Source of the DNA: a virus
Length of the DNA: 64,000 nt
Reading direction: 5' to 3' (one strand)
UHGV virus genome: UHGV-0247568
Under the pieces are notes generated by a model. It was not told the DNA's origin. It did no database searches and worked only from the letters and a program-made list of their open reading frames with translations. The translations under genes and the position numbers were made by a program. The first letter of the stretch is position 1. The number at the start of each line of letters is the position of its first letter. Of the stretch, positions 32,191 to 64,000 are shown piece after piece.

Positions 32191-32346
32191 ATGGAAGAAA
32201 AGATTTTTATCGTATATGTAAAAACAATTAATGGTAATGATAATTTAATGCCAATATCAGCGATATCAGAAGAAGAAGCAACACAAAAAGCTCTTAAAAG
32301 TAGTTTAGTTTCTGAAGTAATTGGAGTTGATAAAAATGGTAAGTAG
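32191..32346 (+). CDS. small hypothetical protein (51 aa), not in the track
   Basis: RBS aagtgaggt then ATG. Overlaps the next gene's start. Confidence 0.3.
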   Translation: MEEKIFIVYVKTINGNDNLMPISAISEEEATQKALKSSLVSEVIGVDKNGK

Positions 32347-33199
32347 AATGGGTAAAAATAAAGTGAAAATTACGACAAGACGAGTCGCAATTACGGAAGA
32401 TGTTCCACTTGGAAGATATGTTAAAATCAAAGGCAACGGTTATATTTTTGTTAATAGTTTAAACAAAGCAACTATTTTTGATAATATCGATCGAGCAAAA
32501 CAAGCTATGGAAAAATATAATATTGAAGATTTTGGTTTAAATTTTGCTCCAATCGTTGTAGATAATTCTAAACATGGAAAAGGAATTAAAACTGCTTCAA
32601 GAAATATTATGAAAAATATTAGAGAAATTGCTGTTGTAGATGATCTTACAAAAGAATATGTTGAATCACTTATTTTTGGAAAAAGTTTTTCATATTTTTC
32701 ACTTGATTCAAAATATATTTTATCTCACCAAAAAGAATTGAAAGATGAAGTGCTAAATAAAATTGGTAAGTTAATTGAGTTCCATAATCATTGCGATAAA
32801 TATTATGTTGTATCAATTCTTCCAAATAAAACTTCAAAAGAAATGATCGCAAAAGAATGTAAAGGCTGCGCAATTTGTGATGTGATTCAAGATTTAGCTT
32901 CATTTTTAGATGTTCCTGAAATGAGCAAAATTTATAAAGTTTCGACAATGCAAGATACGGATCGTCATAAAAAATATGATATGAATAATTTAGAAGATTT
33001 GGCTGAAATGTATTTCGATTTTGTCACTCTTCGAAATAGTGGATATTCACCGAAAAATATCGCAAAAATGTATGGCATTTCTTACGAACAACATTGCGAA
33101 AATTATGATCGACTTCTTGAAAGTGAGTTCCATGAAATTGTTGGTCGCAAAAATCGAGGCATTGAAAAAGTCGAACGACGAACAAGGATAGATATTTAA
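32336..33199 (+). CDS. hypothetical protein (288 aa; the track start at 32321 is in the same frame)
   Basis: The ATG at 32336 follows ggag. Contains a CxxC pair. No family recognised. Confidence 0.5.
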   Translation: MVSRMGKNKVKITTRRVAITEDVPLGRYVKIKGNGYIFVNSLNKATIFDNIDRAKQAMEKYNIEDFGLNFAPIVVDNSKHGKGIKTASRNIMKNIREIAVVDDLTKEYVESLIFGKSFSYFSLDSKYILSHQKELKDEVLNKIGKLIEFHNHCDKYYVVSILPNKTSKEMIAKECKGCAICDVIQDLASFLDVPEMSKIYKVSTMQDTDRHKKYDMNNLEDLAEMYFDFVTLRNSGYSPKNIAKMYGISYEQHCENYDRLLESEFHEIVGRKNRGIEKVERRTRIDI

Positions 33200-34586
33200 T
33201 TTTTTATTAAATTTTTAATTTTTATATTATATAACGCCACACACTGGTTACCCCTAAGAAACGTTTTGGTACCTGGTGTGTGGCGAAAACTCAATAACGT
33301 ATTACCAGGAATTTCGCCTTTTTTCCTGAGGACAGTGCGGGCTATTTCGTCGACCGATGCGGATGGGTTGGTAGCCATTTCACACCCTCAGGACAAAAAT
33401 AATGAATGACTGAACACACTTTAATGCATTAATGATTGATGTGATGACACAGCACATACGTTGCACACATAAAGTTGAAGCAAGAAGTAAAAGTGTTTCA
33501 CTGTCAGTCACTCTCAAGCTGTCTATACTCACTATAGTAGATATATCCTACACACCCTCAAGACGTCCCTCAGACATACCTCAGACACTACCCCTGTCTA
33601 CTATAATCTATATAATACACTACTATGATATAATATAACAATAATATGTACTATTATGCTGTATATGTACACTATATAATGTACGTATAATGTACACCCT
33701 GAGTACACATATAATATATATTATATATTTTGTGGTGCATATATGCTGTTATTATGTAGCTGATATGCAATATATATAAATAATGTGTACACACTATGTA
33801 CATTATAGTGATGCAATATTATAGTGCAACAATATACTGACTTTATATATAATATATAATCTATATACGTGCTATATGGTATAATGGTATACTGTACCAT
33901 ATTTTACCTGATATATATGGCATGTTATATACGGCTATCTATATACGGGTATATACATGGGTATATAGGTACTCCATGGTGTATATGTGCCTATCCTTAT
34001 AGACGATATATGGTATATATAATAAAAGGATTATGACCAACTCCATGGAGTAGATAACAGATATTTATTGCATACATTTTTGCGAAGCAAAATGTATGCT
34101 CCTTACGTTTTGCGAAGCAAAAACGTAAGGATTGGTAACTGCTTACTATTCCTCTTAAATATACAAATTCCTCTTATTCTAATATAAAATATCAAATAGT
34201 CTAATATATAATAATATCTCCCTCTTTGATGTTTACACCTCCATGGTGTATAGTGTAAAATATCAAATATACTAATCTATATATATAGGATTCGGTGTTT
34301 TTGTGATTTTACAGTTTACAGTTGACAGTTAGTATGATATAATATAATTATCTTAAATATGAGGAGATGAGCTGAATTTGAATTAGTTAAAGGACGTTTT
34401 AAAGTTGGAGACAGATTTAGACACATTCGTTATGGAAACTTGAATGTATTAAAAATTATAGAAGTCAGAGAATATGAGAGACATTTGCCAAACTATAGAG
34501 TGATTAGTGAAAATAATGGCTATAAATATTTGATTAGTGAAGATGAGTTAGTGAAATATCCAATTATTAGAAATGAGGAATAAATT
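33200..34586. other. 1.4-kb ORF-poor region with three parts: a GC-rich structured element (33228-33400), an AT/TA-rich iteron block (33600-34030) and twin palindromes capped by GCGAAGC mini-hairpins (34071-34130). Candidate replication origin and/or packaging region
   Basis: No credible ORF. Long hairpins cgccacacac…gtgtgtggcg and tcctgagg…cctcagga. Repeats (g)ggtatata and tatacgg. Four CCATGG copies. Palindromes catacatttt-TGCGAAGCA-aaatgtatg and ccttacgtttt-GCGAAGC-aaaaacgtaagg. Confidence 0.45.
34315..34343 (+). promoter_or_regulatory. promoter TTTACA-N17-TGaTATAAT
   Basis: TTTACA 34315-34320, TATAAT 34338-34343. A second TTTACA lies 7 nt upstream. Confidence 0.5.
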
Positions 34587-36185
34587 GTGAAAAAGAATAC
34601 AAAGGGAGAAATTGACTTACATTTAATTTTAGGTCAAGCTGGAAGTGGAAAGAGTAGTAAACTATTTAATATGATTGAAACTGAAATGAACGAAGGTAAA
34701 ATGAGACCGATTATCTTATGTAACAAATGGTTATTAGTTCGTTCGACTGAAAAGAAAGTTAGTAAGTTAAATGTCAATCATAATGTTCGTGTGCAAACAG
34801 TTCAATCAATTACTGAACGAACGATTAATGTGCAGAATCAATTAGCTGGAATTGATACAATTATTTTAGATGAATTTAGTCAAATCGATTATAACACGTT
34901 GCTTTCATTAACAGATGCTTGTAAAAAAGTTGGAATTACAAGAATCGTTGCAGCAGGTGACTTCTTACAAAATGAACCGATTAAAGGTGGAAGTTATAGT
35001 CCAATGCGATTAATTATTCGTCAATTCTTATTAGGAATTACATCAAACTTCTTCGCTTCATTGAACTTTTATCCGATTTACGAGTGGCTAAAAGATCAAT
35101 CACAATATAACCATGGAGTGTTGGAAGTTCCTAAGGATTTGCGCACTATGCTAAAATCAATTACTTATGAAGCGCTTTTGGACAATTGGAGACAAAATGG
35201 TAAAGTAACTATTCGTAATAGTCAAGATATGCGACAATTGTTAGCTGATAATTTATATCTATTTCAATATGATGGTGAATATAAAGATAAATTGAAAAAA
35301 GCTATTATGCGAAAAGATTGGCAGATTATAGTTGCAGATTGGAAGCAAATGGCTGTTGTTAATAAATTTGCGTATGATAATGGTTTAAATGGATGTCAAA
35401 CTGATTATTATATCGACATCCGTGGTTATCAAGATGAAAATTATCGCAACTATTATAAATTGACACAAAAAGGATATAGATTAATTAATGGTCGTGATGA
35501 TTCAATTAAAGACGATTTTGAATTGATGCAATGTATTCGTCCGACATTTGCAATTATTGCTGATAGTGCGCAAGGATTAGAATTTGATAACGTTATGCTT
35601 GTTTCATTATTAGATGAAAGTGTAAATAAAGGAAGCAAATACAAAAGTTGGTCAAATTTTTCATTCAACTCATTATACATGGCAATGACTAGACACAAGA
35701 TTGAAGTTGACTTATGTGTTGATGAACATGGATGGAAAGATATGAATAGAACATTAGACATTGTGCCTTATGCAAAAAAAGATATGATTGAAGAAGAGTG
35801 GTTACATTATTGTGCTCGTGTAAATATGCCAGCATTTGAAGCGTTAGAAATGTATAAGAACAAAAGTCACTATTTTGTAAACAATGGATATTTTGTTTCA
35901 AATATCGGTAACACTGTTGTTCGGTTCGCAAAAGGTACCAAAACATTTGATATTGGATTAAAACCAGATTATACTCTTTTAAAATTATGGAAACAATATC
36001 ACCCAAATATTATTGATGAAAATGTTGAAAAAACATTGAAAAAAAGTAAAACAAACAATAGTAATACTGTTATTTTAGATTGGATTAATGAAATTGGTAA
36101 AGAAAATATTGATATGAGTTTATCAGTTCGTAAATTCAAAGCAAAATATGGAAAAACAAAAAGTCAAGTTGAAAAATATTTATAA
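34587..36185 (+). CDS. SF1 helicase-like P-loop NTPase (GTG start)
   Basis: Walker A LILGQAGSGKSS, Walker B ILDEFSQ. C-terminal SAQGLEFDNVMLV and YMAMTRHK resemble SF1 (Pif1/RecD/UvrD) motifs V and VI. RBS aatgaggaa. Confidence 0.55.
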   Translation: MKKNTKGEIDLHLILGQAGSGKSSKLFNMIETEMNEGKMRPIILCNKWLLVRSTEKKVSKLNVNHNVRVQTVQSITERTINVQNQLAGIDTIILDEFSQIDYNTLLSLTDACKKVGITRIVAAGDFLQNEPIKGGSYSPMRLIIRQFLLGITSNFFASLNFYPIYEWLKDQSQYNHGVLEVPKDLRTMLKSITYEALLDNWRQNGKVTIRNSQDMRQLLADNLYLFQYDGEYKDKLKKAIMRKDWQIIVADWKQMAVVNKFAYDNGLNGCQTDYYIDIRGYQDENYRNYYKLTQKGYRLINGRDDSIKDDFELMQCIRPTFAIIADSAQGLEFDNVMLVSLLDESVNKGSKYKSWSNFSFNSLYMAMTRHKIEVDLCVDEHGWKDMNRTLDIVPYAKKDMIEEEWLHYCARVNMPAFEALEMYKNKSHYFVNNGYFVSNIGNTVVRFAKGTKTFDIGLKPDYTLLKLWKQYHPNIIDENVEKTLKKSKTNNSNTVILDWINEIGKENIDMSLSVRKFKAKYGKTKSQVEKYL

Positions 36186-36204
36186 AAAATATAGGAGGAA
36201 AGTG

Positions 36205-36233
36205 TTTACTTTCTTCCTTTTTCATGATATAAT
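36205..36233 (+). promoter_or_regulatory. class-B promoter TTTACT-N17-TGATATAAT inside a terminator hairpin
   Basis: Hairpin aggaggaaagt/actttcttcct (36193-36218) plus T-run. TATAAT 36228-36233. Confidence 0.6.
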
Positions 36234-36270
36234 ATAAATATAAAATAATAAAAGAAAAAGAGGTAAGAAA

Positions 36271-38235
36271 ATGGACTTTAAAAGATATAATGAAAGAGAG
36301 GCAAAGCAGTATACAGCTCATTTGTGTTATCAATTAGGAATTGTTTATAATATTGCTAAATTGATTGCAGAAGATGAACCAACGTTTGTGGCTTTAAATA
36401 AAGCTTACAAAAACAAAGATGATGAATCATATGACAAAGCTTTTAATTTATTAAAGCAAATTAATGGAGTTGGACCAAAACGTGCAGCTTTATATTTAGA
36501 AAAATATTTTGAAAACCCATATCGTTCTATTAATTGGGAAATGTTTAATATTTTACAAAAATATCAAAAAGTGACTGGTTGGTCAGATAATCGATTATAT
36601 GATTTAGCTCGCCGTATTGATGACCCTTCAAAAATTTGGGACACATTTTTATATGATAGTTCTATCACATTACCAATTGCTGTTGAAATTTATAAAATGA
36701 CAACTGAAGATGATGTGTATTTACAAAACCAAACAATTGAATATTTTTCAAATTTCGTTAAATTGCGCGAAATTCAAAATGGACAAAATCGTCTTACAGT
36801 TCCTAAATTCAATATTAACAAAGAATTAAATGAGAAGTATGACGTTTTCTTAGAGGTAAAAGATGTTGTTATGTTGAAAAATACCGCCATGGACTATGTT
36901 ACAATTCTCAAATATTTCAATGAAAATAAAGATAGTGAACTAATCTTTGAGTTAAATGAGGATATTGATGTTTCAGATTTTGGATCAGATCAGTTGGTTG
37001 CATTTGAGAAATTAAGATGTAAAAAGACAATGATGTTGACTGGTTTTGCTGGAACGGGTAAAACTTACATGTTAGACAAATATATCAAAAATTTAATGGG
37101 TGCGAAGGTTTACGCTTGTGCACTCGCTGGTAAAGCTGTTAAAAACTTTGTAAATGCAATGAGTCCAGATAGTATGAGAAAAGTTACACAATCCACGGTG
37201 GCTGGACTTCGATATGTTCCAAAGTATCAAAGTGAATTACACGATTCGACTATTGTAATTGTTGATGAAGTCTCCATGGTGTCTATGTCTGATTTAGCAT
37301 TTATTATTAGAAACTTAGACGACGAACAAAAGCTCATTTTAATTGGAGATATTAATCAATTACCAGCTATTGAATTGGATGTTATGAATTGGTTAGTAAA
37401 TGATGGAGAAATTGAATTAGTTACTTTAGACATTCCAAAACGTCAAAGTGCAGATTCCGGAATTTTTAAAGACAGTATGTCTATTATTCGTAAAGAAGTT
37501 CCTGATTTTAGCACGGAAGATAGTCAAGTTAGAATTGGTGCTACAACAGTTCAAAAAATTATTTATGAAAATCGTGATGCAGACATTTTTCTAACAACAA
37601 CGAATCAAGTGAAGGATATTATTAATGAAGTCAAATCCAATGAGATTCGTCAAATTCCAAATCATGCAGTATTTAAAAATAAATTATACAAGCAAGAAGT
37701 CGAATTCCACGAAGGTTATCAAATTATGATTGGTAAAAATAATGTTGATACTGGTTTAATGAATGGTGATATTTTTGTTATTAATTACGAAGGACATTTA
37801 ACTGATCCTTATACAGGAGAAATCGCAAGAGATTTAGACGGAAAACCTCTTAAAATAGGAGAAAATCGTGATTATGTTGATGCTGGCTTTGGTGGAAAGA
37901 GCAATATTATCGACACCACGGCACATAACGTTCAAATGGCATTTGCTATTACGACACACAAAAGTCAAGGTTCGACTATGATGAAAGGTGTCACTGTTAT
38001 GGGTAAAGGTCCATTAGCTAATCGTAATTTATTATATACAGCTTTAACACGTTTTAAAGAAAAACATGTGTTATACTTACCAGATGAAACTTTATTAGAT
38101 ACAATTTTAAATACTGATGTAAAATATGAAAAATTATCTAAAGAAGACCAACAATTTTTAACTGAAATTGTTGAATTAGAAAAAAAGAAAGAGGTAGGTA
38201 CTAATGATGCAAATGATGCAGCAGAAATTTTTTAA
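36271..38235 (+). CDS. Dda/RecD-like SF1B DNA helicase
   Basis: Walker A TGFAGTGKTYMLDKY, DExx IVDEVSM. Signature ITTHKSQGST (the TxHKSQG of RecD/Dda/TraA helicases), plus LYTALTRFK. Confidence 0.7.
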   Translation: MDFKRYNEREAKQYTAHLCYQLGIVYNIAKLIAEDEPTFVALNKAYKNKDDESYDKAFNLLKQINGVGPKRAALYLEKYFENPYRSINWEMFNILQKYQKVTGWSDNRLYDLARRIDDPSKIWDTFLYDSSITLPIAVEIYKMTTEDDVYLQNQTIEYFSNFVKLREIQNGQNRLTVPKFNINKELNEKYDVFLEVKDVVMLKNTAMDYVTILKYFNENKDSELIFELNEDIDVSDFGSDQLVAFEKLRCKKTMMLTGFAGTGKTYMLDKYIKNLMGAKVYACALAGKAVKNFVNAMSPDSMRKVTQSTVAGLRYVPKYQSELHDSTIVIVDEVSMVSMSDLAFIIRNLDDEQKLILIGDINQLPAIELDVMNWLVNDGEIELVTLDIPKRQSADSGIFKDSMSIIRKEVPDFSTEDSQVRIGATTVQKIIYENRDADIFLTTTNQVKDIINEVKSNEIRQIPNHAVFKNKLYKQEVEFHEGYQIMIGKNNVDTGLMNGDIFVINYEGHLTDPYTGEIARDLDGKPLKIGENRDYVDAGFGGKSNIIDTTAHNVQMAFAITTHKSQGSTMMKGVTVMGKGPLANRNLLYTALTRFKEKHVLYLPDETLLDTILNTDVKYEKLSKEDQQFLTEIVELEKKKEVGTNDANDAAEIF

Positions 38236-38740
38236 AGGTCAGACCATGGAGGTAGTTGGTGCTCTCAATGACGAAAATTATAACATTTATCTTTTACACA
38301 TGGGAGATTTTTGTCAAATTGTAGAAGAATTAGAATATGATAAATATTTAGTGCAATTTGAAAATGGTAAAAAATATGTTTTACGTGGAAAATGTTTATC
38401 ACCAAGTTCATTTCCTTTTATTGATAAATCAACAATTATCGTAGCTAATAATATAGGAGTTTTTAACAACGTTAAATATGATGCAGATAAAAAAGCTTTC
38501 TGTTTTGAATTAAAACATTTAGTGGATATTGTTTACTCCACGAAGGATATTCAGAAATTACGTTCAGTCGGATATACTAATTTTTCTACAGTGATCAATG
38601 AGAAAATATTTGAAATTTGTAGACAGCATGGATTAGAAAATGCCACCATGGAGGAAGCAGCAGAACTCTTTAGTTATTTTATGAAAAAAGATTATGATCG
38701 TGCTATTGAGAAATATGGTGAACTCCATGGAATTCGATAA
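38204..38740 (+). CDS. hypothetical protein (178 aa)
   Basis: ORF overlapping the helicase stop. Confidence 0.45.
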   Translation: MMQMMQQKFFKGQTMEVVGALNDENYNIYLLHMGDFCQIVEELEYDKYLVQFENGKKYVLRGKCLSPSSFPFIDKSTIIVANNIGVFNNVKYDADKKAFCFELKHLVDIVYSTKDIQKLRSVGYTNFSTVINEKIFEICRQHGLENATMEEAAELFSYFMKKDYDRAIEKYGELHGIR

Positions 38741-40177: not shown

Positions 40178-40179
40178 AT

Positions 40180-40445: not shown

Positions 40446-41735
40446 TTGATGAAATGGTTTGAAATTTTAGAAGAAGTTAGTTTTGCAAAAGGTAAAGAAA
40501 AAGTTGAAGTATTGAAAAAACATAAAGATGCAGCATTATTACCAGAGATTTTAAATTTTTTATATAATCCACGAATTGTTACTGGAATTAGTAAAAAGAA
40601 AATGGGTAAAGAATTAGAAATTTCAAAAACAGTTGAAATTCCTGATGAGAACCATAGAGTAGCTTCAATAATGGAATATTTACATGAAAATAATACTGGA
40701 AAAGATCAAGATTTAATTTTTGTAAAATCTATTATTGAATCAACTGACGATATGAAGGAACGTCAATTTTTGGAATCTTTAGTTGTAAAAGATATGCCAA
40801 TTGGAATTAGTGCGAATTCAGTTAATAAAGTATGGCCAAAATTAATTCCAGTTTTTAAATTACAAAAAGGACAATTATTTGAAGGCTCATTTGAAGGACC
40901 ACAAATTGTATCATTAAAAATTGATGGCAATAGTGCAACAGTTTTTAATTTAGAAGAGAAAACTTATATGCTTTCAAGAAGTGGCGCTATTATGGAAGGT
41001 TTTGACCATATTCTCAATTATTATCGTCATATTCTACCTTTTGGATATGTTTATCAAGGTGAATTAATTGCGAAAAATTATAATAATTTAGACCATGGAG
41101 AATTATTCCGTTATTCAAATGGTATTACAAACAGTAAGAAAAACGATGAAAAGACAATGTTACAACACGTAGTATTTGACGTAATTCCCATTGAGGATTT
41201 TGAAAAAGGAAAGAGTGACATGGTTTATATTGATAGAATCTCAATTGCGCAGTCTTGCGTTGAGGAATATCAACCATACGGAGAAACGTATAAAAACGTC
41301 TGTGTTGTGCCTTTCTATTCTCATACGACAAAAATTGAAAATATTATGAATTTAGCAAATGAAGTGATTAAAGATGGATTAGAAGGTTTGATGATTTGTA
41401 CGTCAGATTCCAAATATAAAGTTGGTAAACAAAAGTGGCTGCAAAAAGTTAAAGAGTTTAACGCAATGGACTTAGAAGTTATTGACATAAAAGAGCACGT
41501 TCGTGGTGGGAAAGTTGGAGCTCTTATTGTAAATTATAAAAATAATGAAATCGGTGTTGGCGGAATTACTGATGAATTAAGAGAAAAATGGTGGAATAAT
41601 CCGAATGAAATCATTGGTAAGATTATTGAAGTAAAATATTTCCGCTCCACGGCGGATAAAAATGGAAAAGAATCACTCCGTTTTCCTACTTTCGTCCGTG
41701 TACGTGATGATAAATTTGAAGAAAGTTTTGATTAA
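40446..41735 (+). CDS. ATP-dependent DNA ligase
   Basis: Adenylation motif I VSLKIDGNSATV (KxDG), motif-V-like region, then an OB-fold domain. 429 aa. Confidence 0.75.
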   Translation: MMKWFEILEEVSFAKGKEKVEVLKKHKDAALLPEILNFLYNPRIVTGISKKKMGKELEISKTVEIPDENHRVASIMEYLHENNTGKDQDLIFVKSIIESTDDMKERQFLESLVVKDMPIGISANSVNKVWPKLIPVFKLQKGQLFEGSFEGPQIVSLKIDGNSATVFNLEEKTYMLSRSGAIMEGFDHILNYYRHILPFGYVYQGELIAKNYNNLDHGELFRYSNGITNSKKNDEKTMLQHVVFDVIPIEDFEKGKSDMVYIDRISIAQSCVEEYQPYGETYKNVCVVPFYSHTTKIENIMNLANEVIKDGLEGLMICTSDSKYKVGKQKWLQKVKEFNAMDLEVIDIKEHVRGGKVGALIVNYKNNEIGVGGITDELREKWWNNPNEIIGKIIEVKYFRSTADKNGKESLRFPTFVRVRDDKFEESFD

Positions 41736-42844: not shown

Positions 42845-43238
42845 AGAAAATGATATTTTGATGTCTATTGAAAATAGTCAGAAATACATTGTTTCAAAAG
42901 CTCCAAATGATGATAATACTTTTTATAAGTTAATTCCTTTTAATAATCGATCAGAATTAAATAATAAAGAGGTTATGAACGCAAAATTAAAAATCATTGC
43001 TTTGCCTAAAGTAGTCCATGGCGAAATGATTATGATTGGTAAAAACGACGATTATTGCCGTATTGTTCCGGATCCTCTTAAAGTAATTAACGAAAATGGG
43101 AAATTCATTCAGTTGTCGGTAGATAACGAAGTCCATGGAAAAATCGAAATTAAAATTGGAAAAGAACGTATCCATTTAGATGAAAAAGAACTCAATGATT
43201 TAATTGATGAAATTGAGGAAATAAAAAAATATCTATAA
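42828..43238 (+). CDS. hypothetical protein (136 aa)
   Basis: ORF. Confidence 0.45.
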   Translation: MKNWYEENDILMSIENSQKYIVSKAPNDDNTFYKLIPFNNRSELNNKEVMNAKLKIIALPKVVHGEMIMIGKNDDYCRIVPDPLKVINENGKFIQLSVDNEVHGKIEIKIGKERIHLDEKELNDLIDEIEEIKKYL

Positions 43239-43267
43239 AAAGTATTTTAATAAAATGGTCCATGGAG

Positions 43268-43296
43268 TTTACAAATATCCTCAAATTTGATATAAT
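43268..43296 (+). promoter_or_regulatory. class-B promoter directly preceded by the CCATGGAG motif (gtCCATGGAGTTTACA)
   Basis: TTTACA 43268-43273, TATAAT 43291-43296. Confidence 0.6.
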
Positions 43297-43334: not shown

Positions 43335-43883
43335 ATGAATGTAGCAGTTTTTATGGGTTCAAGATTTGGAAAAAATAAAATGCACAAAACTAATGCTAAA
43401 AAGTTAGGTAAAACATTAGCATTAAATGATCATATGTTAATTTATGGTGGTTCTGTTTCAGGATTAATGGGAACAGTTGCAAAATCTGTTAAAAAATATG
43501 GTGGAAAAGTAACTGGTGTTTATCCAAAGGGACATTTTGAAGATGAGAAACCACTTTACGATATTGACTTTTTTATTGAAGTTGACAATATGGATGATCG
43601 TAAGAGAAAATTAATTGATTTGGCGGATGCATATGTAATCTTACCTGGCGGCACAGGTACTCTTGAGGAATTCGCACAATTACTTTGTGAAATGATGATT
43701 AATATCACTCCATGGAGACCAATTTTTATCCTTAATGAAGATGGTTTCTACAATGGATTAGCTTCACAATTATACACTTTCATTCATGAAGGCTTTAGTT
43801 ATGAAAATAAAAAATTAGCAAAACATATTTATATTTGTGATACAATTGATATTTTACAAGAGAAAATCGAGGGATTATCATGA
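43335..43883 (+). CDS. LOG-family protein (TIGR00730-like; cytokinin riboside 5'-monophosphate phosphoribohydrolase / SLOG fold)
   Basis: Motifs GGSVSGLMGTVAKSV (GGGxGxMG) and VILPGGTGTLEEF (PGGxGTxxE). The ATG at 43335 follows an RBS; the track start at 43323 is in the same frame. Confidence 0.65.
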   Translation: MNVAVFMGSRFGKNKMHKTNAKKLGKTLALNDHMLIYGGSVSGLMGTVAKSVKKYGGKVTGVYPKGHFEDEKPLYDIDFFIEVDNMDDRKRKLIDLADAYVILPGGTGTLEEFAQLLCEMMINITPWRPIFILNEDGFYNGLASQLYTFIHEGFSYENKKLAKHIYICDTIDILQEKIEGLS

Positions 43884-44068: not shown

Positions 44069-44695
44069 ATGGAATTCTTAAAAGAAGGACAGAAAGTAGT
44101 AGTAAAATACAATGAAAATGAAACAAAAATTGGTCAAATTATCGAAGTTGATGATTTAGATTCAGAAATGCCATATCGTGTACAATATAAAGACGGTAGT
44201 AAAATTTGGGTATATGCAACAGATGTCAAGCCATATAATCCACGGCGGAAAGTATATTTAGCTGGCCCATTCTTTAGTGATAAACAAATTGAGATTGTTA
44301 ATGAACTCCATGGCGCGTTAAATGAAAACAAATCAATTGAAAGTGTATTCGTTCCAATGGAACACCAAATGAACGATGGAGATTTAGAAGAGTTTACAGC
44401 TCCATGGGCTTACGCTGTAGCTATGAATGATTATAAAAATGTTCGTGAAGCAGATATTGTGGTCGCAATTGTTGATTTTGATGGTCAAGATATGGATAGT
44501 GGAACAGCAGCAGAAATTGGATATGCATATGCCATTGGAAAACCAGTTTTCTTGTTCCATAAAGAAAACCATGAAATTATGGTTAATTTAATGGTAACAG
44601 AAGTTGCTCAAGCATATTTTACTGATTTACAACAAGTAAAAGATTATAATTTTACTACTCAGGAAAAAATTCCTTTCTCAGGAAATTATCGTTAA
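44069..44695 (+). CDS. ndt: nucleoside 2-deoxyribosyltransferase with an extra N-terminal ~65-aa small beta-barrel (SH3/KOW-like) extension
   Basis: Catalytic-site motifs YLAGPFF and DSGTAAEIGYA (nucleophile Glu), as in Lactobacillus NDT. The N-terminus GQKVVVKYNENETKIGQIIEV…YRVQYKDGSKIWV looks like an SH3-like barrel. Confidence 0.75.
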   Translation: MEFLKEGQKVVVKYNENETKIGQIIEVDDLDSEMPYRVQYKDGSKIWVYATDVKPYNPRRKVYLAGPFFSDKQIEIVNELHGALNENKSIESVFVPMEHQMNDGDLEEFTAPWAYAVAMNDYKNVREADIVVAIVDFDGQDMDSGTAAEIGYAYAIGKPVFLFHKENHEIMVNLMVTEVAQAYFTDLQQVKDYNFTTQEKIPFSGNYR

Positions 44696-44722
44696 AAATT
44701 AAAAAATATTTGCTCCATGGAG

Positions 44723-44751
44723 TTTACAAAATTCCATGGAGTTGATATAAT
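44723..44751 (+). promoter_or_regulatory. class-B promoter flanked by two inverted CCATGGAG motifs (CTCCATGGagtttacaaaattCCATGGAG)
   Basis: TTTACA 44723-44728, TATAAT 44746-44751. The two motifs can pair as an 8-bp stem with the -35 in the loop. Confidence 0.6.
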
Positions 44752-48118: not shown

Positions 48119-48120
48119 GA

Positions 48121-49926: not shown

Positions 49927-50895
49927 ATGGCAGCAAATTCATTGCGTGAAGCAGCAAATGCAATCGAGGTAGTAGGAACAGTTAAAAAAGTTGAGCTTGA
50001 AGAAAAAACAAGTCAAAAAACAGGTAAAGAAATGATTATGGGTCACATTTTAGTTGAAGTTAAAGAAAGTGCTGAACGTATTCATAATATTAAAGTGAAA
50101 GTATTTTCAATGAAACTTAATAAAAAAGGTGAAGTATCAGGACTTTATAAAGGTTATAAAACTGTTAAAGATGAATGGAAATCTGGCGATCGTGTAAAAA
50201 TTACAGGTTCAATCGGGTTGCAAGAATATTACTCACGTTCTGGAAATTTAGTTTCATTTAATGAAATGAAAGCTCTATTTTGTAATCGATTGGATGAAGG
50301 TGATCAAACACCAGATAAAGCAATTGCAACAGTTGAAATGGTTGTTAAAGGTATGACACCAGAAATTGATGCGGAACAAATTCCAACAGGAAATTTAATT
50401 GTTGATGCATTCACAGTTGGATATAATTCAACAATTATTCCATTACAAAACTTAATTATTAATGGTGAATTAGGTCAACAATTCCAAACTATGTATGCGC
50501 CGAATAGTACTGGTAAAATCACAATGAAAATTAATAATTATTCTACAGTAAGTAAAGAAGAAACACCACAAGTTAGCCATGGTTTTGGTTCAACTGAAGT
50601 TGTTGAAGATACTATTGTAAAAGATTATACAAATAATTTAGAAATTATCGGTGGCGATTTACCATATCAAGATGGTGTTAATAATTACTCAATGGAAGAT
50701 ATTGCACAAGCTGATAAAAATCGTGAACTTGTATTACAAGAATTGCAACAAAATGCTTCTGCAGCTCCACAACCAACAGCTTCTGGTTTTGGAACAACAG
50801 GTACACAGACAAGTGACCCAATGGCAAGCGCATTTACAAATGCACCGGTAAATAATGAAGACCCATTTGCAAATGGTGGAACACCAGCATTTTAA
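49927..50895 (+). CDS. putative single-stranded DNA-binding protein (OB-fold-like N-terminus, Gly/Thr/Ser-rich tail ending …EDPFANGGTPAF)
   Basis: Weak. Position within the replication genes, an N-terminal beta-rich region and an acidic DPF-containing C-terminus reminiscent of SSB tails. Confidence 0.3.
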   Translation: MAANSLREAANAIEVVGTVKKVELEEKTSQKTGKEMIMGHILVEVKESAERIHNIKVKVFSMKLNKKGEVSGLYKGYKTVKDEWKSGDRVKITGSIGLQEYYSRSGNLVSFNEMKALFCNRLDEGDQTPDKAIATVEMVVKGMTPEIDAEQIPTGNLIVDAFTVGYNSTIIPLQNLIINGELGQQFQTMYAPNSTGKITMKINNYSTVSKEETPQVSHGFGSTEVVEDTIVKDYTNNLEIIGGDLPYQDGVNNYSMEDIAQADKNRELVLQELQQNASAAPQPTASGFGTTGTQTSDPMASAFTNAPVNNEDPFANGGTPAF

Positions 50896-51460: not shown

Positions 51461-51888
51461 TGGAAAAAAGATTTATTGATAGTTATAAAGCAGGTTTTGA
51501 ACTATTTCAAAGCGCAAGTAAAAAAATTGCAATTTTTGAAAAATATTTAAATGAAGAAAAAAATAAAGATTTATTGAAATTATTAAAAAATAATTTCACA
51601 GACTATAAAAATGATTATTCAAAAATATTGGAATTAGGTTCAGCAGCATATAGTCGTATGGAATTATCTCGAAAATTAAGCGAAGCATATCACCAACAAG
51701 CTATCGCGTTAAAAATGATCATGTATCCCATTGACGAAATGATGGAAATCCATGGTGATAATGATTTAATCCGTTTCCGCGAAACTTTATGTGAGTCCAT
51801 TGTGGATGAATTGCAACTCCATGGAGACGTGTCAGAAACTCGTTTTATGGAATTAGTCGCAGAAGCAATGCGAAAAAATCTGATATAA
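51460..51888 (+). CDS. hypothetical protein (142 aa; the TAATG-coupled start is preferred over the track start at 51445)
   Basis: ATG overlapping the upstream stop. Confidence 0.45.
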   Translation: MEKRFIDSYKAGFELFQSASKKIAIFEKYLNEEKNKDLLKLLKNNFTDYKNDYSKILELGSAAYSRMELSRKLSEAYHQQAIALKMIMYPIDEMMEIHGDNDLIRFRETLCESIVDELQLHGDVSETRFMELVAEAMRKNLI

Positions 51889-53092: not shown

Positions 53093-53140
53093 ATAAATAT
53101 AATTAAAAGAAAAAAAATAAAACGAAAAGAGGAAATTATT

Positions 53141-53803: not shown

Positions 53804-53804
53804 T

Positions 53805-56989: not shown

Positions 56990-58566
56990 GCACCATGGAG
57001 TTAACATTAAATCCGACAAGAGCGATTTACAATTTTTTTGGCTCTGTAATGAAATCACCTGATATTTTGAAAGCGCCTGAAATTATTTTAGGTGATCGTG
57101 ATTTTGTTCAATCATTTCATAAAATTGTATATGCAGCATTAAATAACATTATTTTTAGTAATAGAGATAATATTAGTGATATTAGTCCAATTGATGTAGA
57201 TAATTATCTTGCAAAATATCCAAATTATTATCGAGTTTGGGAAGAGAATAATGGTGTTGAATATTTAAATAATGCGAAACAAGTTTCAAACACTCAAATT
57301 GCAAATAAAGATTATGAAACAATTAAAAAATTTAGTTTATTGAGAAATTATGTTGAAAATGGTATTGATGTTTCAGATATTTATGAATATGATAGCAATG
57401 ACTTAGGTGCATTAACAGAAAGTAATAAAGTATTAGAAAATACAAGCATTAATGAAATTATTGAACATTTTACACAAAAAGCAATTGAAATTCGCAACGA
57501 GTGGAATGTTGACGATGGAAAAGTTAAAGACTTTAAAGCCGGTGATGATTTAGATGGACTTTTAGATCGTTTAGTTGAGAATCCAGATTTAGGTTTTCCA
57601 TTTCAAAATTTAATGTATAATACACTTTTTCGTGGAATGCGTAAAGAGAAGTTTATGTTGAGATCGGGTGCAACGGGAACTGGTAAAACTCGTCAAGCTA
57701 TAAGAGATATGGTATCAATTGCTTGTGATAAAATTTGGGTCACAGGATTAGGTTGGAAAAGTCTGGGTCCTTCGTTTCCAGCATTGTTTATATCAACCGA
57801 AATTGAACAAGAAGAATTACAAACAATTATGTTGGCATATTTAACCGGAATTCCGGACTCTGATATTAAAAATGGTAACTATGATTCGGCAACACGTAAG
57901 AGATTAGAAGAGGCAATTGAGATTTTGAAGAAAGCGCCTTTATTCATGACTTACATTGAGGACTTCTCAATCAGCGATATTGAAATGAAAATTGAAGAGT
58001 ATATTGTTAAAGAAAACGTACAATATGTTGCATTTGACTACGTTCAAATGACACCAAAATTGAGTAAAACAATGAACGATAATTTTGGAACAACTTTACG
58101 TGAAGATCAAATTTTAGTTCATTTTTCGTCAGCATTAAAAGGTATTGCTGGTCGTTATGGAATTTTTCTTGAAAGTAGTACACAATTAAATAGAGGTAGT
58201 AAAGAAATCGAAAATCGTGATGCGTCTTCACTTCGTGGAGGTTTAGCGACAGCTGATAAGGTCGATTATGGTATTTTAACATTTAAAGTTTCTCAGAAAG
58301 AAAAAGATGGATTAAAACATATTTTGCAGCAAGGTTTTGGTGGAGATATTCAAAAAACACCGGATTTTTCACATTGGGTTTATAAAAATCGTGCTGGTTT
58401 GGACCATGTTGTAATTTGGACAAAAATGAATTTGGGAACAATGCGTGAAGAAGTATTATTTGTAACTGATTATGATTTTAATTTAATTGAGATAAATGGA
58501 ACTGAAATTGAATTTGAAAGTGTTGATACAATGCCAGAAGAAATTGAAAATGTTCCAGTGTTTTAG
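56986..58566 (+). CDS. DnaB-like replicative DNA helicase
   Basis: C-terminal RecA-fold motifs SGATGTGKT (H1/Walker A), ISTEI (H1a), FDYVQM (H2/Walker B) and LESSTQLNRG (H4 QLNR). 526 aa. Confidence 0.7.
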   Translation: MSTMELTLNPTRAIYNFFGSVMKSPDILKAPEIILGDRDFVQSFHKIVYAALNNIIFSNRDNISDISPIDVDNYLAKYPNYYRVWEENNGVEYLNNAKQVSNTQIANKDYETIKKFSLLRNYVENGIDVSDIYEYDSNDLGALTESNKVLENTSINEIIEHFTQKAIEIRNEWNVDDGKVKDFKAGDDLDGLLDRLVENPDLGFPFQNLMYNTLFRGMRKEKFMLRSGATGTGKTRQAIRDMVSIACDKIWVTGLGWKSLGPSFPALFISTEIEQEELQTIMLAYLTGIPDSDIKNGNYDSATRKRLEEAIEILKKAPLFMTYIEDFSISDIEMKIEEYIVKENVQYVAFDYVQMTPKLSKTMNDNFGTTLREDQILVHFSSALKGIAGRYGIFLESSTQLNRGSKEIENRDASSLRGGLATADKVDYGILTFKVSQKEKDGLKHILQQGFGGDIQKTPDFSHWVYKNRAGLDHVVIWTKMNLGTMREEVLFVTDYDFNLIEINGTEIEFESVDTMPEEIENVPVF

Positions 58567-58578
58567 AGGTGAAATAAT

Positions 58579-59184: not shown

Positions 59185-60224
59185 AAAAGTTGTTGAAATG
59201 TTAAATGACCGAGACGTATTTGATTTGTTAGAAGAATTAGAAGCGCAACCAATTGATAGAGGAAATACAATCGATGCATTAACGGTGTGTCATCGGTGGA
59301 CATAAACATAAACTGACTTATTACAAAGAAAGTAAATCATTTCAATGTTGGACAAATTGCGGCCATATGTCGATATTCGATATGGTCGCAAAAGTTATTG
59401 ATGGTGAATTTATAGATGCTTTAAAATTTATAGTAAAAAAATATAATTTACAAGATAATAATTATCAAGTTGGTTTTACATTTGAAAAAGTAGAAGATCC
59501 GGGTAAAAAATTATTAGAAAAAATGAAAGGAGTAGAAATGCCAACTTTCATAAAGTTAAACTCGGATATTTTAAAAGACTTTTATCCATTTTATCACCAA
59601 CTTTGGATAAATGATGGAATTTCTATAGAATCAATGAAAAAATATAGAATTAAATATTCCATTGAGAATAATCAAATAATTATTCCGCACTTTGATAAAA
59701 ATGGAAATTTAATTGGAGTTCGTGCTCGTAATTTAAACAAAAAAGAAGTGGATGAAGGTAAAAAATATATGCCAATATTCCATGGTGGTAAAGTTTTAAA
59801 ACATATGACTGGAGCAAATTTATACGGTCTTTATGAAAACAGAGAAAATATTGAAAAAGATAAAAAATTAATATTGTTTGAATCAGAAAAAAGTGTTTTA
59901 CAATTAAACAGTATGTTACCAGATCATTCAATTGGTGTATGTGTTTCAGGCTCTTCATTAACACAATATCAACTTGAATTAATCAAGGAACTTAATATAG
60001 ATGAAGTAATTATTGGTGTTGATAAAGAATTCAGTGAAGTTGGAACAGAAAAAGAGAAAATATATGCTGAAAAAATATTAAGAGTTTTTAAGAGAAAATT
60101 AGCACCATATGTAAGAGTGTCAGTTTTATGGGATTTGGAAAACGACATTGAGGAAAAAGATAGTCCCACTGATAAAGGAAAAGAAATATTTTTAAAATTA
60201 TTTAAAAATAGAATATATATTTAG
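59174..60224 (+). CDS. DnaG-like DNA primase (CHC2 zinc-binding domain plus TOPRIM). As sequenced it is broken by a frameshift at the (GT)3 tract 59285-59290
   Basis: N-terminal part in frame 2 (GTG 59174 after RBS aggtga: VNAKKVVEMLNDRDVFDLLEELEAQPIDRGNTIDALTVCHRWT*). Continuation in frame 3 from 59283 (C-VIGG-HKHKLTYYKESKSFQ-C-WTN-C-GH, zinc-finger spacing like DnaG). TOPRIM motifs ILFESEKS and VIIGVDKEF downstream. Adding one GT unit or deleting 1 nt restores a single ORF. Confidence 0.6.
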
Positions 60225-60231: not shown

Positions 60232-62061
60232 TTGATGGAATTCACAGAGAAAAATTTGTTTAACCCAGGAAAAAATTCGTTCGTTGAGGATGTGTTAGCA
60301 CTCCATGGAGTTAATCCAGAAATGTTTTTAAATGGAAAAGACCACGAAGATGAAATTACTTCAAAACCGAGTTTATATTTCAATATGTTTAAAGCTGCTA
60401 ATCTGGTGCGAAAACATATTGGAACAAATTCGTCAATTGGAATTTTAGTGGATGATGATGCTGATGGAATGACTTCTGCCGCGGCAATGGCACGTGTGTT
60501 ATTTAAGAGGGGACACCATGGAGCGAAATTTATTTTTCATGATGAGAAAGGACATGGACTCCATGGAGAAGTTGAAAAAATCATTGAGCAAAAAATTGAC
60601 TTCTTAATTGTGCCCGATGCAGGCTCTAATGATTTTAAAGAACAAGAAGAAATATTAGAAGCTGGGATTGACTTATTAATTTTAGACCACCATGGAGTAG
60701 ATAATGAAAAACCAATTTTAGAATTGGAAGCATTATACAATGGTTATGCATTAGTAAATAATCAATTATCTTATAACACAAAAGGTGTTAATAAACAGCT
60801 TGTTGGAGCAGGAATGGTTTATAAATTTGCTCAAACTTTAGATGCTGAATTTGGAACTGATGAATTTTCAAAAGATATTATTGATTTAGTAGCAGTTGGA
60901 CAAATTGGTGATGCAAGTGATGTATCAGATTTAGAAATTCAATTAATTATTCGTGAAGGATTAGATAATTTAAAAAATCCACTGTTAGTAGAAGCATTAA
61001 GAAACCGTATTGTAAAAGGTCAAAAAATTGCACCTATCAATATGTCGTTTGATATTATTCCATATATTAATGCTGTTACACGTGTTGGAAAAATGGATGA
61101 AAAAATCGAATTAATGAAAGGACTAATTGGTTTTTGGCCAGCTGATGAAACGGTTATCATTCAAAAGAGAAGAAAAAACAAACTAACAAACAAATTTGAA
61201 ATTCGTGAAGAACCATGGACTCACTATGGAATCTTAATGGATAATTTATCAAAAATTAAAAATAGACAAAACAAAGAAATTGATAAAGTTCTCAAAAAAA
61301 TTGAGGATCCTTATAATGAAAATATTGTTATCGCGGCCCTCAATGAAGATGAGATCGAATATCGATCAATCACTGGGTTAATTGCTAATAAATTGGTTTC
61401 TCAATATAATAAACCAGCACTTGTATTAATTTCTGAAGAAAAAGGAACAAAATTTAGTGGTTCAGCTCGTGGACATGAAAAAACTGTTTCTTCATTCAGA
61501 CAATGGTGTTTAAGCACTGAACTATTTGAATTGGCGCAAGGACATGATAATGCATTTGGTGTTATTATTGATGAACTAAAATTAGAAGAATTAATGCAAA
61601 ATGGAACTTTAGAAACAGAAGTAAATCAAGTGACATATGAAGTTAACAAAATCTATGAAAATGAAACAAACATTGAGGAAATCAAAATGATTAACGACAA
61701 TGCGTGGATTTTCGGTGGCTCCATGGCGGCACCGAAATTTGGTTATAAAAACTTAGTGATTGGTCGCAATTGTGTATCACAAAGAGGTTCTGTGGTTACG
61801 TTTTTCGACCATGGTTTAGAGTTTATTATGTATAAACAACCAGCTGGTTTAGTTGATTCATTTTTAGAAAAAATGGGCTTTGAACAAAAATTAGTAGTAA
61901 ATTTAGTTGGGCACGCTAGTAGAAATGAATGGAATGGAAGAGTAAAAGAACAAGTGGTTTTAGATGATTTTGAAATGATGACATTAGCAGAAAGTGGAAT
62001 TGAAGATAAGGCACCAACTTTCGATCCTAACTTTGATGATGATGGAAATTTAGTTTTTTAA
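60232..62061 (+). CDS. DHH/DHHA1 phosphoesterase, RecJ-like single-strand DNA exonuclease
   Basis: DHH motifs ILVDDDADG (I), HGL/HHG (II) and LILDHHG (III, DHH). A downstream GSARGHEKT GGGH-like DHHA1 motif. 609 aa. Confidence 0.7.
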   Translation: MMEFTEKNLFNPGKNSFVEDVLALHGVNPEMFLNGKDHEDEITSKPSLYFNMFKAANLVRKHIGTNSSIGILVDDDADGMTSAAAMARVLFKRGHHGAKFIFHDEKGHGLHGEVEKIIEQKIDFLIVPDAGSNDFKEQEEILEAGIDLLILDHHGVDNEKPILELEALYNGYALVNNQLSYNTKGVNKQLVGAGMVYKFAQTLDAEFGTDEFSKDIIDLVAVGQIGDASDVSDLEIQLIIREGLDNLKNPLLVEALRNRIVKGQKIAPINMSFDIIPYINAVTRVGKMDEKIELMKGLIGFWPADETVIIQKRRKNKLTNKFEIREEPWTHYGILMDNLSKIKNRQNKEIDKVLKKIEDPYNENIVIAALNEDEIEYRSITGLIANKLVSQYNKPALVLISEEKGTKFSGSARGHEKTVSSFRQWCLSTELFELAQGHDNAFGVIIDELKLEELMQNGTLETEVNQVTYEVNKIYENETNIEEIKMINDNAWIFGGSMAAPKFGYKNLVIGRNCVSQRGSVVTFFDHGLEFIMYKQPAGLVDSFLEKMGFEQKLVVNLVGHASRNEWNGRVKEQVVLDDFEMMTLAESGIEDKAPTFDPNFDDDGNLVF

Positions 62062-62765: not shown

Positions 62766-63149
62766 ATGGATAATAATAAAATTGAAGATAGTAAAGTGGA
62801 GAAAATAATTGATTTAATTGAATCGTTATTAATTGTTAGTGAAATTAATGAAGAAACAGAAGTGTGGATTGAAACACTAACTCCTTCGCATGGGCAGTGC
62901 CACTTACCAGTTACTGGTCTCTCCATGGACGGCGAAAATGATCTCTTTTTACTATTAGATATTGATAAAGACCATGGTGTTAAAGTTCCACAATTACTTG
63001 AATATTTACAAAAATATACTGATGAGAATGAAGTAGAAGAATTATGGTATTGGAGTGGAATTAACGAACCTTTTACAGTTGATTCATATTATATTATGGA
63101 AGATAACACTTTAGTTTTTAGTGATTATAATGGTGAACGCGATGAATAG
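62766..63149 (+). CDS. hypothetical acidic protein (127 aa)
   Basis: RBS aatggaggtat. Confidence 0.45.
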   Translation: MDNNKIEDSKVEKIIDLIESLLIVSEINEETEVWIETLTPSHGQCHLPVTGLSMDGENDLFLLLDIDKDHGVKVPQLLEYLQKYTDENEVEELWYWSGINEPFTVDSYYIMEDNTLVFSDYNGERDE

Positions 63150-63612: not shown

Positions 63613-63708
63613 AAAAATGAGATTTTGTGCAATTTTTTATGTACAAAGTCTCATTTTTTATGTATAATAAATATATAATAAATAAACAAATAGAAAAGAG
63701 GTAAGAAA

Positions 63709-63837
63709 ATGCTGAACGAGCAACAACCTTTAACTATAGAAGAAGAAATTGAATTACAAATTCAATCCGTTGAATTGATAATGGAAATTGAAGAAATAAT
63801 TGATAAAAATGGAAAAATTTATGGAAAAACTTTATAA
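63709..63837 (+). CDS. very small ORF (42 aa) behind a class-A-like cassette (TGTACA variant -35)
   Basis: Conserved leader and RBS aaaagaggtaagaaa. Speculative. Confidence 0.25.
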   Translation: MLNEQQPLTIEEEIELQIQSVELIMEIEEIIDKNGKIYGKTL

Positions 63838-63843
63838 AAACTG

Positions 63844-63872
63844 TTTACAAAATAGAAAAGTTAATGTATAAT
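63844..63872 (+). promoter_or_regulatory. class-A promoter with conserved leader
   Basis: TTTACA 63844-63849, TATAAT 63867-63872. Leader …cagaaagtaggaaataaca. Confidence 0.7.
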
Positions 63873-63920
63873 AAATATATAATAAATAAACAAAACAAAA
63901 ACAGAAAGTAGGAAATAACA

Positions 63921-64000
63921 ATGATGAAAAATTTAGAAAAATTCAATTTAAACGCAGGAGATAAAGTATTAATGGACGGCGATGTATATTTAATCTTAGA
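63921..64000 (+). CDS. hypothetical protein, 3' end outside the window
   Basis: ATGATG after the class-A leader. Open to the window end. Confidence 0.3.
   Translation, partial: MMKNLEKFNLNAGDKVLMDGDVYLIL

Follow-up and report, generated by a model that had tools for sequence, protein, structure and literature searches.

A selected palindromic word confined to one arm of Vipetofemvirus genomes: candidate recognition sites of a dimeric DNA-binding protein

Analysis of a 64,000-nucleotide (nt) stretch of the virus genome UHGV-0247568 (hereinafter, the window) reveals a dispersed motif, the palindrome CCATGG with preferred flanking bases, that is concentrated in one arm of the genome and is maintained there at the level of the DNA. 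About 45 such sites per genome, or about 1.4 per kb over 35 kb, are kept by selection. We tentatively interpret the copies of (CT)CCATGG(AG), somewhat short of an even chance, as duplex-DNA recognition sites of a sequence-specific protein that would bind as a symmetric dimer and act regionally. Megablast assigns the window to the genus Vipetofemvirus (subfamily Andrewesvirinae), whose members are ~86-kb Enterococcus siphophages, with 91-96% identity to VPE25, nattely and vipetofem (~96% to VPE25, VFW, vipetofem and vB_EfKM29, and ~91% in the early region to nattely and vB_EfaS_140). Among the large Enterococcus siphophages, the group around VPE25 supplies the principal models and therapy candidates. 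The complete genomes of vipetofem, nattely and VPE25 were compared, together with that of Planchet, a phage of the sister genus Denvervirus. The ends of the VPE25 record map to window positions 33342/33343, and the window spans VPE25 from ~52.8 kb to its right end and then from VPE25 position 1 to 29,960. About two thirds of the genes in VPE25 and its relatives are without known function (PMC7064774).

CCATGG occurs 40 times in the window, against an expectation of 6.0 +/- 2.45 (maximum 14) in dinucleotide-preserving shuffles and of 10.9 under an order-2 Markov model, a four- to seven-fold enrichment that bears out the excess reported in the first-pass annotation. The 38 positions listed there are correct, but the copy at 14495 had been missed, and the late block holds two copies (13805 and 14495) instead of one. 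The extended word CCATGGAG, counted on both strands, has 32 matches versus 0.56 expected and is the top 8-mer of the window (z = 28, as against z ~12 for the runner-up among unrelated words), and the full palindrome CTCCATGGAG reaches z = 46 among 10-mers. These 32 matches correspond to 26 sites, all within 33972-62930, of which six are full CTCCATGGAG palindromes, whereas ten carry the extension on just the right side and ten on just the left. The asymmetric form lies, as had been noticed, in either orientation, with 16 occurrences on the + strand and 16 on the - strand; in a block that is transcribed one way, this argues against reading of the signal in RNA or on one strand of the DNA. Positions +4, +5 and +6 from the centre favour A, G and T on both sides (consensus ACTCCATGGAGT), and information content drops to background past position +6. 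When up to two mismatches to CTCCATGGAG are allowed, 43 matches are found, and the 12 with a mismatch in the core are at the chance level, five of them in the late block. Taken together, the strict palindromic core, the soft symmetric flanks and the lack of polarity point to a symmetric dimer that reads duplex DNA. No similarity extends past the short core and the copies are not tandem, unlike miniature inverted-repeat transposable elements (MITEs), repetitive extragenic palindromic (REP)-like elements or iteron arrays; only the three copies in the leader (33974, 34043 and 34241) have ~16 nt in common.

The distribution of the motif along the genome is sharply uneven. Of the 40 copies, 36 lie in the 30.7 kb to the right of position 33343 and four, none of them extended, in the other 33.3 kb. 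Among the 36, 30 (83%) are inside genes, where phases 0, 1 and 2 are used 4, 8 and 18 times, and six are intergenic, in agreement with the earlier statement that all three coding phases and non-coding DNA are used. In VPE25, positions 1-35.4 kb contain 48 copies (1.36 per kb) and 32 extended sites; the remaining 24.3 kb of the rightward block, with the genes for DNA polymerase, topoisomerase and many small proteins, contain four copies (0.16 per kb), none extended, and the 25.5-kb late block also contains four (0.16 per kb), one of which is extended. The zone has the same limits in nattely and vipetofem, and holds 40-48 copies in each of the three complete genomes. Within the VPE25 rightward block alone, restriction of the sites to its first part has a binomial p of 5e-7 for all sites and 5e-8 for the extended ones. 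The contrast originally drawn, between rightward-transcribed blocks and the late block, therefore has to be redrawn: 24 kb of the rightward block are at background, with the same guanine-plus-cytosine (GC) content and promoters, and the zone comprises the first ~35 kb. The copies at 5448 and 5496, which had been included in the pattern, are unextended, lie in the motif-poor distal part and are at background density. Because GC content (0.288 in the motif zone, 0.286 in the rest of the rightward block) and promoter type are equal on both sides, the boundary is not compositional. Promoter type is ruled out as its cause, with promoters of the TTTACA-17-TATAAT pattern running through both parts of the block up to 59 kb, and no special terminator or promoter was found at the 35-kb boundary. 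The VPE25 RNA-seq data (Table S2A) are row-normalised and their replicates disagree, and no expression class that matches this boundary can be read from them.

Multiple lines of evidence indicate that selection has acted on the DNA and not on the encoded peptides, as had been suggested. Shuffling of synonymous codons in 45 early genes, with the proteins held fixed, predicts 5.3 +/- 2.0 copies of CCATGG and 1.8 extended matches, against 32 and 26 observed. Shuffling of codon order predicts only 2.4 copies (32 observed), which implies that the amino-acid sequences have been shaped too; by the same tests the late genes are without excess (2 copies versus 3.8 expected). At 26 coding sites that can be aligned with Planchet, in orthologous proteins of 20-86% identity, the residues under the hexamer differ in Planchet at ~20 of the 26 (Q, S, Y or A for H; E or V for M), and at the few sites where the residues are the same the Planchet codons avoid the word (CCT TGG for CCA TGG, AGT ATG for TCC ATG, GGA CAT GGA for GAC CAT GGA). 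Amino-acid replacements have thus been accepted in the making of sites. Furthermore, between the window and nattely the core has diverged by 3.7% and the 30-nt flanks by 7.9% (p = 0.03 in a Fisher test; 2.5% of randomly drawn hexamer sets equal this). The sites also turn over, some being present in only part of the genomes, and those at 43016, 44308, 49500, 51750 and 62972 are fuller in nattely. In the window these five have either no extension or only half of it, which shows that bare CCATGG copies and extended ones form one population.

Only one genus carries the motif. Examination of related phages, called for in the first-pass annotation, recovers the same distribution in VPE25, nattely and vipetofem, but the sister genus Denvervirus is without the motif: Planchet has one CCATGG versus 11 expected and no extended site, and two further Denvervirus loci (L011 and L012, of the 9183 type) have zero sites. 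Across its whole genome Planchet avoids GAATTC (2 versus 54 expected), TTCGAA, AAGCTT and CCATGG, and VPE25 and nattely avoid GATATC, GAATTC and CTTAAG. Ordinary avoidance of palindromes is therefore at work in both genera, with CCATGG in Vipetofemvirus as the sole exception. The restriction-avoidance profiles of Planchet and of VPE25 and nattely differ, though both genera encode DNA glycosyltransferases. Neither Planchet nor GR1, a more distantly related Geobacillus phage, has a comparable enriched palindrome. The latter, a relative in the replication module, carries 19-21 copies of AATCGGAGG (z ~30-45) and 25 copies of TTTACGTTT; these words, apparently strand-specific, differ in kind from the motif and were rejected as its analogues. 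When IMG/VR was scanned for paired sites (CTCCATGGAG N1-31 CCATGGAG), nattely and vipetofem alone showed dispersed enrichment, and the same kind of scan of bacterial genomes gave scattered, chance-like matches, with no Enterococcus among the matches listed. In two unrelated phage contigs from IMG/VR (L036, positions 140-215, and L045, positions 294-342), short, local arrays of tandem iterons, for example repeats of CACTCCATGGAGTCCATGGAGGGGTTAGAA, have CTCCATGGAG as part of the repeated unit.

The zone adjoins what is probably a physical end of the genome. The deposited ends of VPE25, nattely, vipetofem and Planchet agree within ~50 nt at window ~33290-33343, a GC-rich region with a hairpin, and an HNH gene and the genes for the small and large terminase subunits lie just inside the opposite genome end. 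Based on the coincidence of these record ends, the GC-rich hairpin and the adjacent HNH and terminase genes, 33290..33343 (no strand assigned) is the probable, moderately supported cos (cohesive-end) region. PhageTerm was applied to the Planchet genome for prediction of the termini (PMC11210271). The motif zone starts ~0.6 kb to the right of this probable end, with three copies in a ~950-bp non-coding leader, and the motif-bearing arm would hold the earliest genes, up to and including those for hydroxymethyl-pyrimidine synthesis and glucosyl transfer. In lambda-type cos phages, packaging begins at the terminase-proximal end; by this analogy, the motif-bearing arm would be packaged last and would enter the cell first. 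In the relatives the zone ends just past the genes for a thymidylate-synthase-family enzyme, a dUTPase-like protein, a T4-type beta-glucosyltransferase and a second sugar transferase, and precedes the thymidine kinase and DNA polymerase genes.

These gene contents bear on the chemistry of the sites themselves. The beta-glucosyltransferase encoded by the relatives is recognised by Pfam with E = 9e-62, and their thymidylate-synthase-family enzyme is divergent, falling far below the cut-offs for thymidylate synthase. Moreover, DNA of vB_EfaS_140 was reported to resist several restriction enzymes (PMC7820071). Together these observations suggest that, in virion DNA, glucosyl-hydroxymethylation of the core cytosines is probable. 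If so, an NcoI-type site need not be avoided, and its enrichment is left unexplained; furthermore, any protein that reads the motif must cope with sugars in the major groove.

The spacing of the sites is not random either. In VPE25, 15 gaps between sites are of 150 bp or less versus 8.9 expected (p = 0.013), and gaps of 68, 68, 69 and 69 bp and of 78, 79 and 79 bp recur (four in one 2-bp bin, p = 0.0008); the spacing of sites in nattely is like that in VPE25 (p = 0.01). The two classes, 68-69 and 78-79 bp, are one helical turn apart, and the sequences between paired sites are unrelated outside the leader.

Several sites contact promoters. Those at 43260 and 44715 are fused in an identical manner to the -35 hexamer TTTACA (CCATGGAGTTTACA), with the centre of the palindrome near -41. 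The first-pass annotation had placed 43260, and 44715 with 44734 as an inverted pair, directly upstream of -35 elements; the site at 44734 is within the spacer of the promoter that 44715 abuts, and a weaker promoter-like site has the copy at 34241 in its spacer. Sites are modestly more frequent than expected within 500 bp upstream of promoters (20 versus 12, p = 0.006), with no significance at shorter distances. About 10 equally strong promoters in 32-52 kb of the window are without the motif, as are all 19 matches to the promoter pattern in 35-59 kb of the relatives in a regular-expression scan. Most copies do not occupy a fixed position relative to the -35 and -10 elements, as would a promoter element or a classical operator. 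Given that only 3-4 of the 36 sites touch a promoter, a role as a promoter element is not supported. In VPE25 one terminator stem is made of the word (CTCCATGgagaCATGGAG), and the window carries a different hairpin at that place.

With respect to the individual sites of the window (ten-base coordinates, without strand), the non-coding leader contains the left-extended CTCCATGGTG at 33972..33981, the full palindrome CTCCATGGAG 69 bp away at 34041..34050, and another CTCCATGGTG at 34239..34248, where the promoter-like site is TTTACA-18-TAAAAT. AACCATGGAG (35109..35118) lies in the gene for a 532-amino-acid (aa) helicase-like protein of superfamily 1 (SF1), and the core-only CGCCATGGAC (36885..36894) and a further CTCCATGGTG (37272..37281) are in the RecD-like helicase gene. 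GACCATGGAG is found at 38242..38251 and, in the DNA ligase gene, at 41091..41100; CACCATGGAG (38644..38653) and CTCCATGGAA (38723..38732) make up a 79-bp pair. Next come GTCCATGGCG (43014..43023), which is core only in the window and GTCCATGGAG in nattely, the core-only GTCCATGGAA (43131..43140), and GTCCATGGAG (43258..43267), which abuts the -35 element of the promoter at 43268-43296. A full CTCCATGGAG at 43708..43717 is followed by CTCCATGGCG (44306..44315; full CTCCATGGAG in nattely) and CTCCATGGGC (44400..44409), and the full palindrome CTCCATGGAG at 44713..44722 abuts the -35 element of the promoter at 44723-44751, whose 17-nt spacer holds TTCCATGGAG (44732..44741). TACCATGGAG (46283..46292), in a PnuC-like gene, and CTCCATGGGC (46362..46371) form a second 79-bp pair. 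The core-only TACCATGGAC (47987..47996) is in a sigma-like gene; CTCCATGGTG (49498..49507) is a full CTCCATGGAG in nattely, and AGCCATGGTT (50575..50584) is core only. A 69-bp pair consists of ATCCATGGTG (51748..51757), core only in the window and CGCCATGGAG in nattely, and a full CTCCATGGAG (51817..51826). Farther to the right, CACCATGGAG (56991..57000) occupies codons 3-5 of the DnaB-like helicase gene, and the core-only TTCCATGGTG (59778..59787) is in the primase gene. The RecJ-like gene carries a full CTCCATGGAG (60301..60310), CACCATGGAG (60514..60523) and, overlapping its DHH codons, another CACCATGGAG (60688..60697); a full CTCCATGGAG at 60559..60568 is 45 bp from the site at 60514..60523. 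The last sites are the core-only AACCATGGAC (61211..61220), CTCCATGGCG (61719..61728), the core-only GACCATGGTT (61807..61816), CTCCATGGAC (62921..62930) and GACCATGGTG (62970..62979), which is core only in the window and GACCATGGAG in nattely.

As for the protein that might read these sites, ~60 open reading frames (ORFs) of the window were scanned against Pfam and PHROGs, and early and genus-specific ORFs were searched against PDB sequences. The early functions that were recognised comprise two SF1 helicase-like proteins, a ligase, a deoxyribosyltransferase, kinases, a PnuC-like transporter, a glutaredoxin, a SigN-like sigma factor, an HNH protein and a RecJ-like protein. The domain scans detected no methyltransferase, restriction endonuclease or PD-(D/E)XK nuclease domain and no HU-like gene among these ORFs, and the PDB searches gave no useful match for a binder. 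The many small genus-specific ORFs of the window are possible candidates. Near the zone, the sole DNA-binding candidate is a 287-aa ORF (32336..33199, + strand) that adjoins the cos region and has a C-terminal helix-turn-helix-like segment. Its family is small: a set of 1.8 billion proteins includes 20 representatives. Of 17 homologues, one has matches to HTH_7 and HTH_23. An AlphaFold2 model of this ORF had a predicted local distance difference test score (pLDDT) of 53 at first and of 80 with 17 sequences, and a Foldseek search against PDB gave nothing better than E = 0.1, with a weak likeness to NarL- and CRP-type regulators. The sigma-like protein encoded at 47087..48118, which had been put forward as a possible partner, shows no tie to the motif and is conserved in the motif-less genus. 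The product of VPE25 orf_1, the first early gene past the leader sites, is an unlikely binder because the gene is interrupted in the window. The counterpart of this 68-aa ORF at 34378-34585 contains a stop codon, and only a 47-aa, TTG-initiated remnant (34440-34583) is open.

Comparison with known systems places the motif in kind among dispersed protein-recognition sites, with features of its own. The stoperators of L5 and other Cluster A phages, bound by the repressor gp71, similarly consist of many copies of one short sequence, dozens of protein-recognition sites spread over tens of kb and mostly away from promoters, and are presumed to affect RNA polymerase during elongation in addition to acting at promoters. 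Stoperators are 13-bp asymmetric sequences, oriented with transcription, that lie in short intergenic gaps over the whole genome of a temperate phage and have a known repressor. The motif, in contrast, has a palindromic core and random orientation, is 83% intragenic and ends at 35 kb, and the only candidate for a cognate repressor is the weak helix-turn-helix-like one, which is also present in the motif-less genus. In SPO1, the preferred sites of TF1 in hydroxymethyluracil DNA are concentrated in the early region and are linked to the control of early transcription; the likeness is that of a phage with hypermodified DNA and preferred sites for a phage-encoded DNA-binding protein, but TF1 is HU-like, senses flexibility more than strict sequence, and has few strong sites and no invariant 6-bp palindrome. 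The Noc-binding sites (NBS), the SlmA-binding sites (SBS), matS of MatP and ram of RacA are tens of palindromes for dimeric proteins in one sector of a replicon, mostly intragenic, with a function that depends on location and not on the neighbouring genes. These sites, however, organise bacterial chromosomes, are 12-16 bp long and extend over hundreds of kb; to our knowledge, no phage counterpart of such region-restricted palindromes has been described. Chi and the uptake signal sequences (USS) and DNA uptake sequences (DUS) are likewise over-represented 8-12-mers, present about once per kb in coding DNA in all frames and selected at the DNA level. Chi, however, lacks symmetry and has a set orientation, USS and DUS, asymmetric too, are genome-wide in competent hosts, and none is palindromic or confined to one arm. 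Finally, the core is identical to the NcoI-type site and has the strict, short palindromic form of a type II restriction-modification target. Restriction sites are avoided in phages, whereas CCATGG is enriched (40 versus 6-11 expected), with additional flank preferences. Thus, the motif lacks the defining features of each known system where the comparison can be made. No description of it was found in the literature on the word, VPE25, Vipetofemvirus or Andrewesvirinae.

Recognition by a dimeric protein accommodates best the strict palindromic core, the equal orientations, the recurrent pair spacings, the graded symmetric flanks, the two fusions to -35 hexamers and the sharp, non-compositional boundary. 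The putative binder is most probably phage-encoded and specific to Vipetofemvirus. We envisage that dimers would occupy single sites and that, where two sites are 68-69 or 78-79 bp apart, the bound dimers would cooperate through a bend or loop in the DNA. At two promoters the site is where a class-II activator would sit, and at one or two promoters binding in the spacer would be expected to repress. The intragenic sites would not act as classical operators; they might form a regional platform for a roadblock to, or shut-off of, early transcription, or for organisation or protection of the arm. A number of observations weigh against this interpretation. The spacing result comes from only seven pairs, two of them in the leader with its possible ~68-bp tandem duplication; 30 of the 36 sites are intragenic and 3-4 touch promoters, unlike ordinary operators; and no DNA-binding domain was detected in any genus-specific protein by the Pfam and PHROGs scans. 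The 287-aa ORF has a homologue of 42-44% identity in Planchet, which is without the motif, and has no site at its own promoter, and hence is only a weak candidate for the binder. Moreover, sugars on the four cytosines of the core would project into the major groove, where many binding proteins would tolerate them poorly, and the anatomy of the sequence would suit an enzyme that nicks or modifies DNA equally.

That last possibility, namely that the motif is the target of a DNA-processing enzyme, either a nickase producing site-specific single-strand interruptions of the T5 type or an enzyme that adds or withholds a modification, we consider unlikely. A strict 6-bp palindromic core with soft flanks is a type II-like mode of reading, and several proteins of the His-Me/HNH type are at hand (48166..49038, an HNH protein by PHROG; 31503..31919, HNH by Pfam), as is the 287-aa ORF with its invariant H...CxxC and helix-turn-helix-like segment, loosely similar to HNH-HTH nickases; in the relatives, the right edge of the zone is also where the genes for the beta-glucosyltransferase and the other sugar transferase are found. 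Such an enzyme, however, does not require enrichment of its target, and the cuts or marks themselves would have to be useful; with 6-9 full palindromes per genome, nicks on both strands would break the DNA. Both HNH genes and the 287-aa ORF are retained in the site-less Planchet, the scanned ORFs yielded no methyltransferase or PD-(D/E)XK nuclease, and preferred pair spacings and placement at -35 are unexpected for a nicked or marked site. We regard as very unlikely a Chi-like signal that would be read by the phage SF1 helicase-like pair (34587..38235) or by host RexAB/AddAB, attenuating degradation of the free end that enters first and promoting recombination-dependent replication. An over-represented 8-mer present about once per kb and confined to the arm beside a genome end would suit such a role, and the first two large genes of the arm encode the RecD-like helicase and a second P-loop SF1-like protein. 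Among the early proteins conserved in both the motif-bearing and the motif-less genus, this 532-aa protein has diverged most, with 24% identity versus 72% for its partner. Chi itself, though, is asymmetric and used in one orientation, whereas the present word is a strict palindrome with asymmetric forms divided 16/16 and no positional switch. In addition, a search of the two helicase-like proteins for a nuclease domain gave none (ADDB_N is sub-threshold, with E = 0.007 and 16 bits against a cut-off of 26.6), and the pair spacing and promoter abutment are left unexplained.

Even less probable, in our assessment, is that the motif is functionless, either a by-product of history or of biased, very-short-patch-like repair, or a trait of an arm derived from an ancestor with other oligonucleotide usage. 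Short-patch repair coupled to cytosine modification inflates its target word in bacteria, and the presence of the motif in one genus only, with gains and losses between close relatives, is compatible with such an origin. Repair bias, however, would be genome-wide, whereas the late block is at background, as are 24 kb of the block to which the arm belongs, and the arm is not a foreign segment, given that it has the GC content and promoter type of the rest of that block and the gene order of the sister genus. Furthermore, the core is better conserved than its flanks; flank preferences, recurrent pair spacings and placement at -35 are not expected of a mutational process; and amino-acid replacements have been accepted to make sites. 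The remaining probability we assign to functions not considered among these four readings.

The proposal of a dimeric reader can be carried one step further, into a version that we regard as quite doubtful. The sites might mark a 'leading arm', in which the first ~41% of a glucosyl-hydroxymethylated genome to reach the cell interior would be labelled by the palindromic word, and might be read on sugar-decorated DNA by a dedicated phage- or virion-borne protein. Its purpose could be the staging of genome entry, the shielding of the exposed end or the later silencing of the arm as a block. The end of the zone between the DNA-modification genes and the DNA polymerase gene would fit a two-step programme, in which replication genes would become available only once the modified-nucleotide pathway had been expressed. 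If true, this would be something new for phages. Irrespective of that scheme, a word that is selected at ~45 places, altering residues in helicase, ligase, RecJ-like and transporter genes, points to a fitness-relevant DNA-protein system that annotation has missed. The word is short, exact and confined to one arm, and the motif-less sister genus with the same gene order provides a natural comparison. If the reader protein recognises glucosylated cytosines, it would show sequence-specific recognition on hypermodified DNA.

Several further features of the window were noted in the course of the analysis. A 245-aa GIY-YIG/NUMOD3 (SegE-like) homing endonuclease gene (30759-31496, - strand) has the small terminase gene (30267-30668) on one side and the HNH gene (31503-31919) on the other; segment 30760-31483 is missing from VPE25, nattely and vipetofem, and is thus a strain-specific insertion in the packaging module. 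Another insertion relative to all three relatives, of 582 bp (58578-59184, + strand), separates the DnaB-like helicase and primase genes and contains a 201-aa ORF with a GIY-YIG-like pattern at its start (FYVYEH...YVGSG) and no Pfam match; it is probably a second free-standing homing endonuclease. The segments 53117-53807, which includes a 220-aa ORF (53141-53803) with no family match, 29780-30106, 13257-13681 and 2337-2541 have no counterpart in VPE25, nattely and vipetofem, and are phage-specific mosaic replacements. Intrinsic-terminator hairpins with the TTTAC(A/G) -35 element of the next promoter in the loop or stem are present at 47011-47031 and 48117-48141 in the window, and at 40790-40813 and 33380-33402 in locus L007; with the -35 hexamer inside the hairpin, terminator and promoter are fused at these operon junctions. 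Finally, GAAAGTAGGAAWT occurs seven times on the + strand (42088, 45625, 49909, 51942, 55835, 62132 and 63904), each time 13-17 nt before an ATG, and one copy, GAAAGTAGG, is on the - strand at 41693, for a total of 8 copies versus 0.19 expected; this sequence is a conserved translation-initiation region of a subset of early genes and possibly a target of translational control.

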